Part shown: positions 1-64,000 of the stretch, piece by piece | Position numbering within the stretch: position 1 is the first letter of the stretch | How the letters are laid out: the number at the start of each line of letters is the position of its first letter | NCBI GenBank assembly: GCA_029742005.1 | Contig: GCA_029742005.1_4113.1 | From: a phage | Strand: one strand, 5' to 3' | DNA length: 64,000 nucleotides | Program-made: the position numbers and the translations under genes | Notes under the pieces: model-generated | The model's input: the letters and a program-made list of their open reading frames with translations, nothing else | The model's database searches: none | What the model was told of the DNA's origin: nothing

Positions 1-171
1 AAAATACTATGCTGATAGAATAAATTATTATCCCTTTTATATAAGATTAGATGCATTAATATCAAAAAAAGTTGTATATAAACGTTCTCAAGCTGAACTA
101 ACCAATATAGCATTCATTCTTGCAGTACTGTCTAAAATGGGATAATATTAAATTAAGATGGATATTAAGAG

Positions 172-348
172 ATGACACATGAAGAATGGTTAGATGAACT
201 AAAATTCAAACATAATCCTTTTGGTTTTGGTATACGCCAAGGTCATTATGATGTGTTAAAAGATAAACAACTTTTCAAATCATTTGTACTTGATGCGGAT
301 AGCAACCACTGGTTCATCTATGAGCTTGCAATTAGAGACAAAAAATAG
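172..348 (+). CDS. small hypothetical protein, MTHEEW-family paralog (58 aa)
   Basis: ATG..TAG ORF read manually (below the 60-aa track cutoff); N-terminus MTHEEWL shared with ORFs at 690, 1382 and 1543. Confidence 0.4.
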   Translation: MTHEEWLDELKFKHNPFGFGIRQGHYDVLKDKQLFKSFVLDADSNHWFIYELAIRDKK

Positions 349-375
349 TAAGATAAATATAATAGTTATTACGGT

Positions 376-447
376 GCAGGTAAAGTGTTGATGGCGGCAT
401 ACAGTACTTCCGATTCTGGGGGTGGGGTTCAAATCCCCATACCTGCT
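376..447 (+). tRNA. tRNA-Gly (anticodon TCC), CCA not encoded
   Basis: Manual fold: perfect 7-bp acceptor GCAGGTA/TACCTGC, T arm TGGGG-TTCAAAT-CCCCA, anticodon loop CTTCCGA; one U-U mismatch in anticodon stem. Confidence 0.55.
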
Positions 448-472
448 CAAAATATAATAAAGGTGATTTAAT

Positions 473-688
473 ATGAAAGTCATTATCAATCCAGCAGGAA
501 ACTTTTTTGGTGAGGTTTTCGGTGCAGACTGTGTTGTGCAAAATTTTCCACGAATTGAAATTGACGGAATTGATGTTCAACAATATGGAAACCTGTACTA
601 TGTAGTTGATGAGACTGGTTCTATTGTTCATGACAGTGCTTTCTTTACAAAAGAAGAGATGAAGCACTTAATTGTACTGGATACATAA
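473..688 (+). CDS. hypothetical protein (71 aa)
   Basis: ORF track; AAGGTGA-like RBS upstream of ATG. Confidence 0.5.
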   Translation: MKVIINPAGNFFGEVFGADCVVQNFPRIEIDGIDVQQYGNLYYVVDETGSIVHDSAFFTKEEMKHLIVLDT

Positions 689-689
689 A

Positions 690-872
690 ATGACACACGA
701 AGAATGGATGTCCAAACAGTATAAAGAACATGACTGCTTTGGGAATGGTATTCGTCAGGTACATTATGATATTCTCAAAGATATAAATTTATTCATAAAA
801 TATGTTTTGGATGAAAATAAACATTGGTTTATATATGAGATTGCATATAGAAACTCAAATAAACAAAAATAA
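690..872 (+). CDS. small hypothetical protein, MTHEEW-family paralog
   Basis: Internal ATG of ORF 672..872 giving N-terminus MTHEEWM; paralogous to 172, 1382, 1543. Confidence 0.5.
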   Translation: MTHEEWMSKQYKEHDCFGNGIRQVHYDILKDINLFIKYVLDENKHWFIYEIAYRNSNKQK

Positions 873-886
873 ATAAGGAATATATT

Positions 887-1105
887 ATGGAAACAACGTT
901 ATTTGAAGTTATTCAAGCATTAAAAACTGGTGATGACATTCAAGTATTGCTACATGGTTATCGTTTAAAAGGCACTGTGGTTTTAGTTAATGACACAACG
1001 TTAGTTATTGCCGAAACAAATCCATATGATAGTAATCAAGTTGCTAATATCCATATTGATATTAAAAGCATTATTGGTGTAGGCGTAAATAAAAATCAAG
1101 AATAA
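887..1105 (+). CDS. hypothetical protein (72 aa)
   Basis: ORF track; AAGGAA RBS. Confidence 0.5.
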   Translation: METTLFEVIQALKTGDDIQVLLHGYRLKGTVVLVNDTTLVIAETNPYDSNQVANIHIDIKSIIGVGVNKNQE

Positions 1106-1184
1106 CAAATGTTTTTGAAAAAACCAGAAAATGAATGATTTTTTTTGGGACAACTCAAAAATATATGATATAATAATTAGTACA

Positions 1185-1274
1185 GGTGAAGTGGCAGAGT
1201 GGTTTAATGCAACGGTCTTGAAAACCGTCGAGGGTGAAAGTCCTCCGTGAGTTCAAATCTCACCTTCACCGCCA
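1185..1274 (+). tRNA. tRNA-Ser (anticodon TGA), type II with long variable arm, CCA encoded
   Basis: Manual fold: acceptor GGTGAAG/CTTCACC, anticodon arm ACGGT-CTTGAAA-ACCGT, T arm GTGAG-TTCAAAT-CTCAC, 3' GCCA. Confidence 0.8.
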
Positions 1275-1278
1275 ATAT

Positions 1279-1360
1279 CCGGGCGTATCTCAACGGTCTT
1301 CTAAACCGTCGTTAATCGAGTAACTGGAGTATACAGGTTCGAGTCCTGTCGCCTGGGCCA
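1279..1360 (+). tRNA. tRNA-like element, possibly tRNA-Arg(TCT)-like, with degenerate or missing D arm
   Basis: Good acceptor (CCGGGCG/CGCCTGG), T arm ACAGG-TTCGAGT-CCTGT and 3' GCCA; anticodon arm ACGGT-CTTCTAA-ACCGT has the same stem as the adjacent tRNA-Ser; only ~5 nt where the D arm should be. Confidence 0.35.
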
Positions 1361-1381
1361 ATTTTAATTAAAGGTTAAACC

Positions 1382-1546
1382 ATGACGCATAAAGAATGGA
1401 TGAATGACATTAATTTTAGATATGCAGGTTTCGGTAACTGGAGAAAGTATCATTGGGAAATCATGTCAGACCCAGCAGAATACGATAAACTTATAAACCA
1501 TGAAGCGTATCCGTGGTTCTTTATTGAAATAATGGTACGAACATGA
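1382..1546 (+). CDS. small hypothetical protein, MTHEEW-family paralog (54 aa)
   Basis: Manually read ORF, N-terminus MTHKEWM; stop overlaps next start (ATGA). Confidence 0.4.
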   Translation: MTHKEWMNDINFRYAGFGNWRKYHWEIMSDPAEYDKLINHEAYPWFFIEIMVRT

Positions 1547-1707
1547 CACATGAAGAGTGGATGAAACGCCAAAAATTAAAGTGGAATCCTTATTATCTCT
1601 CGTTAGAGCCGAGAATGTGGGATGTGATACGTGTTAAATGTATGTACAAATCATTTCTTTGTGATATAATGGATGTTGAAGTTCTGATGCATATTGTGTA
1701 CAGATGA
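1543..1707 (+). CDS. small hypothetical protein, MTHEEW-family paralog (54 aa)
   Basis: Manually read ORF, N-terminus MTHEEWM; translationally coupled to 1382..1546. Confidence 0.4.
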   Translation: MTHEEWMKRQKLKWNPYYLSLEPRMWDVIRVKCMYKSFLCDIMDVEVLMHIVYR

Positions 1708-62743: not shown

Positions 62744-62799
62744 TTCAGTACTGAATCAATGGCGGGAGTGGTTCCCGCCTATAACCAGGAGTAAGCATC

Positions 62800-63033
62800 A
62801 TGTTCGAACAAATTCAAACGACCACAAGCCGGAGCGGAACGAAAGTACATTACATCGCTGATACTGATAAAGGTGTACCCTATTGTGCTGTACACGTAAA
62901 TACTGACGGTGACTATTGGTTAACTGTATACGGGCGTTACTCGTTTGCTTTTAGTGCACATTGTAAGATCCTGGAAGTAGTGAAGCCTACCGGTAAGAAT
63001 ATCACGCCGGGAAAATGTTTTACTAAGCACTAA
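62800..63033 (+). CDS. hypothetical protein, paralog of partial ORF at 63955
   Basis: N-terminus MFEQIQTTTSRSG vs MLEQIKSTSSNVTG. Confidence 0.55.
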   Translation: MFEQIQTTTSRSGTKVHYIADTDKGVPYCAVHVNTDGDYWLTVYGRYSFAFSAHCKILEVVKPTGKNITPGKCFTKH

Positions 63034-63040
63034 AAAGTAC

Positions 63041-63101
63041 TTGCATACTAAGTTTAAAAGCGTATAATACTTTATATCGAGGCGGGGGAATGGTTCCCGC
63101 C
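63041..63101 (+). promoter_or_regulatory. class C cassette: promoter plus leader hairpin
   Basis: TTGCAT-N16-TATAAT then GGCGGGGGAA-TGG-TTCCCGCC. Confidence 0.6.
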
Positions 63102-63119
63102 TTTACTGAGGATTATCTA

Positions 63120-63407
63120 ATGAGCAAAGTAATTAACTATACAGTACTAAGCAAGTCATTATCTATTAGCCAGTGCACCGATGGTTTTTGGCTGTACGAT
63201 GAAACGCGTGGCATGAATTTAGCTATGCGGGAGAAAACTGCTGAGGCGGCGTATTTACAAGCCCTGGAATACTACCAGGAACGTTTAAAGGAAGTAGAAA
63301 ACAATTATCAAAATTTAAAAGAGAAAGTAGATAATTTCGTTGGTCAATTCGTTGACGATGACGAGGAAGACGGGCACTACTGCAACCGTTGCGGATCTTA
63401 CAATTAA
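63120..63407 (+). CDS. hypothetical protein with C-terminal CxxC
   Basis: ATG after GAGGA RBS (MSKVINYT). Confidence 0.55.
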   Translation: MSKVINYTVLSKSLSISQCTDGFWLYDETRGMNLAMREKTAEAAYLQALEYYQERLKEVENNYQNLKEKVDNFVGQFVDDDEEDGHYCNRCGSYN

Positions 63408-63411
63408 GTAC

Positions 63412-63471
63412 TTGCAATTAGTTTTCAGTACTGTATAATGGTTTACATCAAAGGGAGAAATGGTTCTCCCT
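63412..63471 (+). promoter_or_regulatory. class C cassette: promoter plus leader hairpin
   Basis: TTGCAA-N16-TATAAT (spacer has CAGTACTG) then AGGGAGAA-ATGG-TTCTCCCT. Confidence 0.6.
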
Positions 63472-63489
63472 GGTAATGAGGAAAATAAA

Positions 63490-63711
63490 ATGGCTAATAT
63501 CACTACTCTTTCCCAACTGGAAGCACTGGTTAAATCTATGCGGGAACATGCCGACAAAATCGGCGTACAAGATCCAGCCGTTTGCTTTTGCGACGAATTG
63601 AATGATGATACCCTGGTAATAGCAGAAGTCCAGGACGTTTCTAACTATTCCTCGCGTTACACTGGCGGCGTAGCAAATAAAGGTGACTTCTGTTTATACC
63701 TTACAAAATAA
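63490..63711 (+). CDS. hypothetical protein
   Basis: ATG after GAGGAA RBS (MANITTLSQ). Confidence 0.55.
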   Translation: MANITTLSQLEALVKSMREHADKIGVQDPAVCFCDELNDDTLVIAEVQDVSNYSSRYTGGVANKGDFCLYLTK

Positions 63712-63773
63712 CAACGCGGGGAGATAATAACTCCCCGTTACTTTTTCAGTACTGAATCATTTAATAGACGGAT

Positions 63774-63826
63774 CTATGCACCCGGTGGGTTAGTGACTGT
63801 TTCGTCTTGATGTAGTAATTATGCCA
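63774..63826. repeat. ~70-bp repeated element, copy 3
   Basis: TCTATGCACCCGGTGGGTTAGTGACTGTTTCGTCTTGATGTAGTAATTATGCC. Confidence 0.45.
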
Positions 63827-63879
63827 GTACTGGATGCACTTGTCAACAATTATTTTTCAAATACTTTTTATTAAAATAC

Positions 63880-63933
63880 TTGCAATTAGTTTTTAAACGC
63901 GTATAATGTTTTGCATAGGGGGAGCGGTTCCCC
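63880..63933 (+). promoter_or_regulatory. class C cassette: promoter plus leader hairpin
   Basis: TTGCAA-N16-TATAAT then GGGGGA-GCGG-TTCCCC. Confidence 0.6.
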
Positions 63934-63954
63934 TGGTAACTAAGGAATAATAAA

Positions 63955-64000
63955 ATGCTTGAACAAATCAAATCAACGTCTTCGAATGTAACGGGAACGG
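63955..64000 (+). CDS. hypothetical protein, 5' partial at window edge
   Basis: ATG after AAGGAA RBS; ORF runs off the window. Confidence 0.4.
   Translation, partial: MLEQIKSTSSNVTGT

Follow-up and report, generated by a model that had tools for sequence, protein, structure and literature searches.

An over-represented AGTACT palindrome across RaK2-like jumbo phages, a phage counterpart of the highly iterated palindromes

HIP1 is the highly iterated palindrome GCGATCGC of cyanobacteria (Xu, Lawrence and Durand 2018, PMC5861425; Elhai 2015, PMC4390886). Palindromes of the HIP type have been an unsolved cyanobacterial puzzle for about thirty years. Chi (GCTGGTGG), uptake sequences and KOPS are asymmetric self-marking words with a genome-wide orientation bias. 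The binding site of SlmA, GTGAGTACTCAC, is a palindrome with an AGTACT core, in which G1, T2, A4, G5 and a purine at position 3 are needed (PMC3020112). In this study, we analyzed 64,000 nucleotides of phage DNA (GenBank assembly GCA_029742005.1, contig GCA_029742005.1_4113.1; hereafter the window), along the whole of which (1..64000) the palindrome AGTACT recurs, often as the octamer CAGTACTG and at its fullest as the 14 bp ATTCAGTACTGAAT. By analogy, the closest described phenomenon is HIP1. We tentatively propose, with a rough probability of 0.42, that AGTACT is a genome-wide tag that is kept by selection and would be read by a symmetric, phage-encoded and clade-specific factor.

Sequence comparison places the window in a RaK2/PBECO4-like jumbo coliphage of ~350 kb. 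Positions 1-20 kb had 97% identity to Escherichia phage JP4 and other ~350 kb jumbo coliphages of the PBECO4/121Q group, and positions 40-64 kb were more diverged, with a best match of 56% coverage at 92% identity. The window is AT-rich (33-40% GC). Gene calling gave 126 genes that make up 84% of its length; they include a phage RpoD-like sigma factor and a minus-strand array of RCC1-like genes, and there are 7 tRNA genes. An Rfam search of the window returned tRNAs only. Genome-wide counts were made in the complete relative ECO103 4-12-1, of which 350 kb were read (554 proteins). Other relatives (RaK2, PHA46, GAP32, XbC2 and EJP2) were sampled with the sigma factor as the probe, and PA5oct and T4 served as outgroups.

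Abundance, distribution and conservation of AGTACT

The first-pass annotation of the window had remarked that the octamer recurs dozens of times. We counted 63 copies, whereas 100 dinucleotide-preserving shuffles of the window averaged 0.91 copies, with no more than 4 in any one, so the excess is stronger than had been noted. CAGTACTG was the commonest 8-mer of the window, and with at most one mismatch it had 189 matches against 22 expected. Relative to base composition, GTAC occurred 576 times (~200 expected), AGTACT 236 times (~21-22 expected), CAGTACT and AGTACTG 118 and 110 times (3.6 expected for CAGTACT), the octamer 63 times (0.6 expected) and the 14 bp ATTCAGTACTGAAT 4 times (~0 expected). 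The base after CAGTAC was T in 84% of cases, and that after CAGTACT was G in 55%. Since one-mismatch variants of the octamer sat overwhelmingly at its first and last positions (102 of 126 in the window, 430 of 574 in ECO103), AGTACT is the hard core of the motif and the flanking C and G are a softer preference. A symmetric TT..AA flank was stronger at intergenic sites than elsewhere. No helical or other short-range periodicity of the sites was found.

Base, dinucleotide, codon or amino-acid composition as the cause was ruled out by the dinucleotide shuffles, by the synonymous shuffles described below and by hexamer counts. While AGTACT stood at 11 times its expectation, 24 other palindromic hexamers had no copy in 64 kb. 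This absence is classical restriction-site avoidance; AGTACT, a ScaI-type site, was enriched 11-fold and thus does not behave as a host-restriction target that exposed phages avoid. The missing hexamers mostly contain GC (CCATGG, CAGCTG, GGTACC, TGGCCA and CTGCAG, for example), and up to 9 copies of each were expected. As a separate observation, the most depleted hexamers of the window contained TGTC/GACA or GTCTC (GTCTCA, GTGTCT, ATGTCG, TGTCGA and GTCACA; observed/expected 0.17-0.26), which may reflect avoidance of a -35-like TTGACA or of a restriction site.

The motif was not confined to the DNA between genes. Thirty-four of the 63 octamers (54%) lay wholly within genes and 29 were intergenic. 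Octamer density was 0.63 per kb in coding and 2.8 per kb in intergenic DNA, and it climbed along the window from 0.6 per kb at 1-20 kb to 3.3 per kb at 59.1-64 kb. The coding expectation was obtained by shuffling synonymous codons within each gene, with protein sequence and codon usage kept (300 runs). After this shuffling, only 4.5 ± 1.8 gene-internal octamers (maximum 11) were left in place of 34, and 49 ± 6 gene-internal AGTACT in place of 158. The gene-internal copies occupied all three reading frames. With 158 of the 236 AGTACT in coding sequences as well, base composition and promoter copies do not explain the frequency of the motif. The annotation's suspicion of a selected feature that is more than a promoter element was therefore borne out by the gene-internal excess. 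It had overlooked that over half of the copies are gene-internal, that the hard core is the hexamer AGTACT, and that the phenomenon extends over the genome and the clade.

The same was observed at the scale of the genome. In the 350 kb of ECO103, octamers numbered 204 (3.4 expected) and AGTACT 918 (119 expected). Every 10 kb bin held at least one octamer, and a hotspot at 300-330 kb held 14-22 per 10 kb. Outside the hotspot, the spacing of the sites was more even than random (coefficient of variation 0.887 vs 1.03 ± 0.04; none of 1000 simulations was as low), and long gaps were fewer than under random placement. Gene-internal copies made up 78% of the 204 octamers, and the genes longer than 300 aa contained 52 octamers, where synonymous shuffling left 3.0. 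Relative to the shuffle, AGTACT was in ~3.2-3.3-fold excess in both the structural-gene region and the hotspot. A metagene profile of ECO103 had mild peaks only, just 3' of stops and 25-75 nt 5' of starts.

We then compared the window with ECO103. The divergence was 2.1% at AGTACT bases and 1.7% at octamer bases, against a background of ~3.4% (3.45%). Conservation was strongest in intergenic octamers, which showed 1 change in 200 positions (0.5%) vs 4.0% in the background. Gains and losses of sites between close relatives were balanced (14 vs 11). At the distance of RaK2 and PHA46 orthologs (40-46% protein identity), coding AGTACT stood at the same codon position in 7 of 37 and 5 of 46 cases, respectively. 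These matches are far above chance yet a minority, and the number of sites was equal in both genomes. Because few positions are shared in orthologs while site counts are equal, density is maintained while individual sites turn over. One-mismatch neighbors of AGTACT were not depleted in 8 of 9 classes (observed/expected 1.07-2.1), AGGACT alone standing at 0.65. Unreduced neighbors argue against repair-driven conversion, and VSP-like biased repair was rejected on this ground.

AGTACT was enriched in each sampled relative. The counts were 114 against 9 expected in RaK2 (sigma identity 44%; octamer 30 vs 0.3), 105 against 10 in PHA46 (37%; 10 vs 0.4), 53 against 5 in GAP32 (35%; 7 vs 0.2), 65 against 5.5 in XbC2 (31%; 9 vs 0.3) and 85 against 7.6 in EJP2 (36%; 29 vs 0.4). 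The outgroups, which had no sigma match among those listed, gave 0 against 5.2 in PA5oct (octamer 0 vs 0.12) and 2 against 3.4 in T4 (octamer 0 vs 0.13). These results make over-representation at ~10 to 100 times chance a derived character common to the RaK2-like clade, and this restriction to a clade points to a phage-encoded rather than a host reader. A 50 kb sample of E. coli K-12 contained 3 copies of AGTACT (0.06 per kb) vs 2.6-3.7 per kb in the phages. The papers on RaK2, CBB, Sharanji, fEgEco12, JP4, EJP2 and phAPEC6 do not mention the motif, and full-text literature searches for the word returned primers and unrelated uses only. No earlier description of the motif was found in the literature that was searched. 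It is the equivalent, in phages, of the highly iterated palindromes.

A second sequence feature was observed in the same genomes. GCGC was absent from the window and from the 350 kb of ECO103 (178 expected), and also from the samples of RaK2, PHA46, GAP32, XbC2, EJP2, Turkey3 and G17 (12-37 expected in each). PA5oct (13) and T4 (25) contained it at normal frequency, and E. coli K-12 had 6.8 copies per kb. The absence of GCGC and the excess of AGTACT had an identical clade distribution. GATC, GGCC and CCGG stood at 0.44-0.58 of expectation in ECO103.

One region, which lies outside the window, departs from the palindrome. ECO103 285,378-293,664 (8.3 kb) contained no AGTACT, while GTAC was still dense. 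AGTACA occurred there 48 times on the sense strand of ~20 co-oriented small genes, in three frames, and its reverse complement 0 times; sense-strand GTACT was found 0 times vs ~30 expected. In G17 coordinates, the block lies 8-15 kb inside the right terminal repeat. The corresponding region of Turkey3 (sample 2001-10000; probe protein 62% identical) had 42 sense AGTACA and 0 AGTACT in 8 kb; its edges were sharp, and the motif was very dense on either side. The block was restricted to Asteriusvirus-like phages. Paralogy was rejected as its origin, as the genes are not paralogs. Because the block is conserved across diverged lineages with AGTACA and without AGTACT, selection tells the palindrome from its oriented half, and a strand-specific reading exists somewhere.

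Explanations for the palindrome and the search for its reader

In the reading that we favor, a symmetric dimeric factor encoded by the phage would recognize double-stranded phage DNA at AGTACT sites, binding it without DNA modification. Its effect would depend on how many sites there are and how fully they cover the genome, and phage DNA would thereby be marked or organized as distinct from host DNA, where AGTACT is rare. The strongest and longest sites are those in the intergenic DNA of the early region and the terminal repeat. Some sites there may have taken on local roles: operator-like in promoter spacers, as one half of a terminator stem, or flanking the terminal-repeat boundary. A symmetric reader of the duplex is favored because the best-conserved intergenic sites extend to a 14 bp palindrome, because conservation between genes is strong and because some promoters carry the motif at an operator-like position. 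The evidence does not cleanly separate this reading from a methylation-linked one and from one based on an oriented half-element, both of which are live.

Several observations weigh against a symmetric phage-encoded binder. A Pfam survey of 117 window proteins detected no sequence-specific DNA binder beyond the sigma factor and HNH nucleases, and no SlmA/TetR-like protein was detectable in ECO103, where a weak 83 aa match to SlmA/TetR lacked the helix-turn-helix (HTH). An HTH_37 regulator beside the sigma gene of GAP32 and XbC2 was rejected because it had no counterpart in the RaK2 locus, in ECO103 or in the window. Contiguous palindromes of 6-8 bp are more often the sites of restriction-modification enzymes than those of HTH repressors. 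Coding octamers diverged by 2.9% vs 3.3% in the background, a difference that was not significant, and a static symmetric binder leaves the block of oriented half-variants (48 sense AGTACA, 0 reverse complements) unexplained. Hence the protein-binding site that the first-pass annotation had suggested is one that we infer, and no reader protein was identified. The boxes of LexA, ArgR and TrpR were rejected since the orientation or spacing of their half-sites did not fit.

A less probable but serious explanation is that of a HIP1-type system, in which an orphan methyltransferase of the phage would modify AGTACT or GTAC and the sites would be kept or created through an epigenetic mark that another factor reads, through protection of the DNA or through methyl-directed biased repair. 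The nesting of GTAC within AGTACT within CAGTACTG, with deviations at the outer bases, parallels that of GATC within CGATCG within GCGATCGC in HIP1, whose nested sequences are recognized by methyltransferases (PMC4390886). AGTACT is a 6 bp palindrome of the type II restriction-modification kind, and ScaI cuts it (bioRxiv 10.1101/2021.05.08.442635). Without protection, 918 such sites would be costly to a genome from which other palindromes are purged. Eco255I is an E. coli isoschizomer of ScaI. The clade encodes methyltransferases, namely a PF05869 Dam-family N6-adenine enzyme and a C5 enzyme, with specificities that are not readable from sequence; phAPEC6 and RaK2 have been reported with two methyltransferases each (PMC7247149, PMC3622015). 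The Dam-family protein has 173 aa and a homolog in Serratia phage BF with 42% identity; no other protein is a concrete candidate for a link to methylation. Characterized Dam-family PF05869 enzymes are known to methylate GATC. The C5 enzyme, RaK2 gp194, was rejected as the reader: it is Dnmt3-like and fits CpG methylation, which has been reported for RaK2 DNA (PMC3622015), a dinucleotide that AGTACT lacks. By itself, methylation does not account for the enrichment, and methyl-directed biased repair predicts depleted neighbors of AGTACT, a prediction at odds with the 8 of 9 classes that were not depleted.

A broader proposal, which we regard as doubtful though worth stating, joins the two sequence features of the clade. 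Saturation with AGTACT, a word that the host seldom has, and total exclusion of GCGC, which has ~7 copies per kb in the host, may form an identity code written in sequence and used by phage-encoded readers. For example, one factor would recognize or protect AGTACT-rich DNA, and a nuclease would destroy DNA that contains GCGC. This code would have special zones in the block with AGTACA only and in the terminal repeat, where the motif is dense. No bulky DNA modification is known in RaK2-like jumbo phages.

It is unlikely that the unit is instead an oriented half-element, 5'-(TT)CAGTAC-3', which a moving enzyme would read on one strand, for instance as a Chi-like signal for a helicase-nuclease, a primase site or the site of another translocase; the palindrome would then be the cheapest way to put the element on both strands. 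The block that carries one strand's version only over 8 kb, conserved in Turkey3, speaks for it, as do the half-word TTCAGTAC, which is the top 8-mer in RaK2, and the even, coverage-like spacing with turnover at a kept density, which resembles that of Chi. However, the oriented half-sites had no genome-wide polarity (403 sense vs 378 antisense), T follows CAGTAC more often (84%) than economy needs, and the symmetric flanks reach 14 bp at intergenic sites. Nor does the half-element explain why that block shuts out the opposite orientation instead of simply lacking it.

A neutral origin is improbable. The machinery that replicates the phage would here have a bias, in mutation or in repair, that produces a palindrome without function, consistent with the balanced gains and losses and with an excess over the synonymous shuffle that is similar in early and late regions. 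Against this, the sites diverge less than the DNA around them, and between genes much less; their spacing is more even than random, their neighbors are not depleted, and the sharp exclusion of the palindrome from one block in diverged lineages needs selection.

We consider it very improbable that the phage sites recruit or titrate a host protein, such as SlmA, and so block division or capture a host function. The SlmA site has the same AGTACT core, and the hosts of the clade are mostly enterobacteria. Nevertheless, the required flanking bases differ. In ~50% of the sites, the phage motif has T at position 1 and C at position 3, where G is the rarest base (8-10%). GTRAGYRCTYAC with at most one mismatch was found twice in the window, which is the chance level, and GAGTACTC once.

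A promoter element multiplied by promoter copies, which would fit the fixed AGTACTG-TATAAT offset in 14 of 62 strong ECO103 promoters and in 5-6 window promoters, is refuted as a complete explanation by the gene-internal counts and the synonymous shuffling, covers 1.5% of the AGTACT sites, and does not accord with enrichment in RaK2 and PHA46, where this placement is not conserved.

Copies in promoters, terminators and the terminal repeat

The first-pass annotation had placed the octamer in promoter spacers just upstream of the -10. This holds for 6-9 of the 63 octamers of the window, with seven or eight of the intergenic copies in spacers of sigma70-like promoters; the rest lie in genes or in intergenic DNA without promoters. 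The window has ~22-28 strong sigma70-like promoters, 6-9 of which carry the motif and most of which do not. An octamer lies in the spacer at 1733..1740 (+; TTGACT-N16-TATAAT), at 20510..20517 (+; a consensus promoter, TTGACA-N16-TATAAT), at 36204..36211 (+; a consensus promoter), at 59521..59528 (+; a consensus promoter within the terminal repeat), at 63426..63433 (+; TTGCAA-N16-TATAAT) and at 63825..63832 (-; TTGACA-N17-CATAAT). The octamer at 2212..2219 (+) is likewise a spacer copy, with a second AGTACT abutting the -35 (AGTACTTGACT), and that at 2984..2991 (+) has a weak -35, TGGACC, and stands directly 5' of a tRNA-Ser gene. The annotation had further read these promoters as a TG-n-TATAAT extended -10. 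A true TGn element (CAGTACTG-A-TATAAT) was found only at 2212 and 2984. The main class, including 1733, reads CAGTACTG-TATAAT, in which the TG is one base too close.

In ECO103, AGTACTG-TATAAT occurred at one fixed offset in 14 of the 62 strong promoters, so that 14 of the 918 AGTACT (1.5%) were at the spacer position; offset -7 was seen 14 times and offset -8 once. The arrangement was not kept in RaK2 (1 of 9) or PHA46 (0 of 14), though the enrichment was. These promoters are a real subclass, but the promoter reading is a minor special case of the motif. For annotation, CAGTACTG beside TATAAT is alone no evidence for a promoter class.

Further features of these promoters were observed. AGTAC often stood directly 5' of the -35 hexamer (AAAGTACTTGACT, AATACTTGACA), at window 2198-2203, 15552, 15873 and in other promoters, which lays a second AGTACT across the 5' border of the -35. 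AAGTACTT was separately over-represented (18 copies vs 2.2 expected). Promoters of the octamer class had a similar leader 10-20 nt downstream, with a stem-loop (..ATCAAAGGGGA..; 20518-20545, 36212-36250, 59529-59570 and 63434-63470). These stem-loops are probably 5' stabilizing hairpins of early transcripts. In another design, the -35 lies inside a terminator-like hairpin stem (aaagggTTGACTtcggTCAgCCCttttt..TATAAT; window 26582-26611, 38105-38134 and 38688-38717). The same design was present in RaK2 (sample ~39860-39900), which suggests a conserved terminator-promoter fusion.

Isolated palindromes after stop codons had also been noted, and they are real. The 14 bp ATTCAGTACTGAAT at 4773..4786 (octamer at 4776) is 26 nt past a stop, with no promoter hexamers nearby, and that at 62743..62756 is 2 nt past a stop and is followed by a GC hairpin; its octamer begins at 62746 rather than at 62748. 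The octamer at 63747..63754, given before as 63750, is 35 nt past a stop and right behind the T-tract of an intrinsic terminator (63716-63738), and its flank is TTTT, not ATT. The other copies of ATTCAGTACTGAAT are at 4894..4907 (octamer at 4897), isolated and 32 nt 5' of the next start codon, and at 60683..60696 (octamer at 60686) in the terminal repeat, with a second octamer 53 nt downstream (60739).

The window carries ten tandem paralogous RCC1-like genes on the minus strand (43204-54803; 369-396 aa plus one of 239 aa). The copy number of this array differs among relatives, and terminators built from the motif lie between its genes. The hairpin at 48766..48798 (-) contains the octamer at 48789 and has a stem made of the octamer and a partial copy (CCAGUACUG...GUACUGG; -17.2 kcal/mol, z -5.1), followed by a U-run. 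A terminator hairpin of the same type is at 49969..50001 (-; octamer at 49992; -15.1 kcal/mol, z -3.7), also followed by a U-run. The annotation's hairpin stems between RCC1-like genes are these two; the octamer at 51203..51210 has a degenerate partner only (ACCAGAAC) and is a decayed version of the same terminator. Because the word is self-complementary, nearby copies pair with each other. Two octamers 26 nt apart (59,672 and 59,698) form a 14 bp hairpin with a short T-run at 59672..59705 (+; -17.8 kcal/mol, z -4.8). In another pair, 35 nt apart at 7143..7185 (+), one octamer is at a gene end and one in the loop region of a terminator-like hairpin.

The cluster that the first reading had located at 59.0-59.9 kb was confirmed, with 7 octamers there. 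The ORF-free (open reading frame-free) stretch at 58869..60268 has 8 octamers (59063-60214), more AGTACT and iteron-like repeats. It straddles the inner boundary of a direct terminal repeat, because that boundary aligns to window 59,141|59,142. This placement rests on homology to phage G17 (20,669|20,668), on which the window maps in reverse, from ~82 kb down to 15 kb. In the G17 record, 1-20,668 is identical to 350,150-370,817, and a direct terminal repeat of the same size, 20,668 bp, was determined by PhageTerm for Sharanji (PMC11895373). By this homology, the 59 kb cluster is a non-coding element at the inner edge of the repeat. Just outside the repeat, two GATTCAGTACTGAT palindromes lie 60 nt apart at 59063..59130, the second ending 11 nt from the boundary, and a terminator-like hairpin lies just inside it. 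The last 4.9 kb of the window (59,142-64,000) are terminal-repeat DNA and have the top octamer density, 3.3 per kb; the G17 repeat carries 9-16 AGTACT per 2 kb along its whole length.

Other repeats were seen in the same region. Iteron-like short direct repeats (GGATGG, CTAGACGG, CTAAACGGCTAGAT and TCTGGAAG) occupy 59870-60060, ORF-free and just inside the terminal repeat, and could be a signal for replication, packaging or DNA entry. A non-coding element that starts with GAATTTTGGGCGTA and continues ..GCACCC.GTGGG..TTTCTCG.. occurs in 3-4 copies (59871-59885, 60222-60275, 60438-60495 and ~63785-63825) and had no Rfam match.

Comparison with known systems

An equally strong palindrome in culturable and genetically small coliphages (PBECO4, 121Q, G17 and Sharanji) would make the question posed by the HIP-type palindromes testable. 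The motif points to an unrecognized layer of genome-wide organization or self-recognition in the RaK2-like clade, which does not form a nucleus. Together, the excess of AGTACT and the complete exclusion of GCGC are a simple sequence signature of this clade.

The SlmA site GTGAGTACTCAC (Tonthat et al. 2011, PMC3020112) is a contiguous palindrome with the identical AGTACT core. By analogy, the phage sites may share other traits of SlmA sites: dispersed along a chromosome and away from promoters, they would be recognized by a dimer and work by way of the bound protein rather than transcription. In contrast to SlmA sites, the phage sites have other flanking bases than those that SlmA needs and number ~920 in 0.35 Mb, compared with ~50 in 4.6 Mb, and no SlmA-like gene was found in the phage.

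Like Chi, uptake sequences and KOPS, the phage motif is a short word enriched in coding and non-coding DNA, with positions that turn over at a kept density; it would likewise work through density and coverage and separate own from foreign DNA. Unlike these words, it is palindromic and, except in one 8 kb block, without global polarity. Like operators in promoter spacers, a subset of the copies lies between -35 and -10, where a bound dimer would occlude RNA polymerase. Like the injection stop region of T5, one cluster occupies repeat-rich DNA without ORFs, exactly where a terminal repeat has its inner edge. Such placements, however, are a small minority of the copies, and repression or a two-step DNA entry would here be drawn from analogy.

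The likeness to HIP1 is the most extensive. Both are 8 bp palindromes over-represented tens to hundreds of times, within and between genes; HIP-type octamers exceed expectation 15- to 300-fold, and the phage octamer falls in this range (63 vs 0.9 in the window, 204 vs 3.4 in ECO103 and 30 vs 0.3 in RaK2). In both, the core is nested and departures from the word cluster at its two outermost bases, and in both the sites are more conserved than the background, which indicates selection. The gene-internal excess, the above-background conservation and the outer-base deviations that characterize HIP-type palindromes were all found here. In each case the role appears to be genome-wide and to rest on many sites rather than on single genes, and neither has an established reader or function. 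HIP1 has methyltransferases for its nested sequence; the phages have Dam-family and Dnmt3-like enzymes, whose specificity is not readable from their sequences. Unlike HIP1, the phage word is AT-rich, different in sequence and in a virus rather than a cell. It coexists with the total exclusion of GCGC and with an oriented variant block, and it is found in a 350 kb genome that purges other palindromes and in which it is densest in the terminal repeat.

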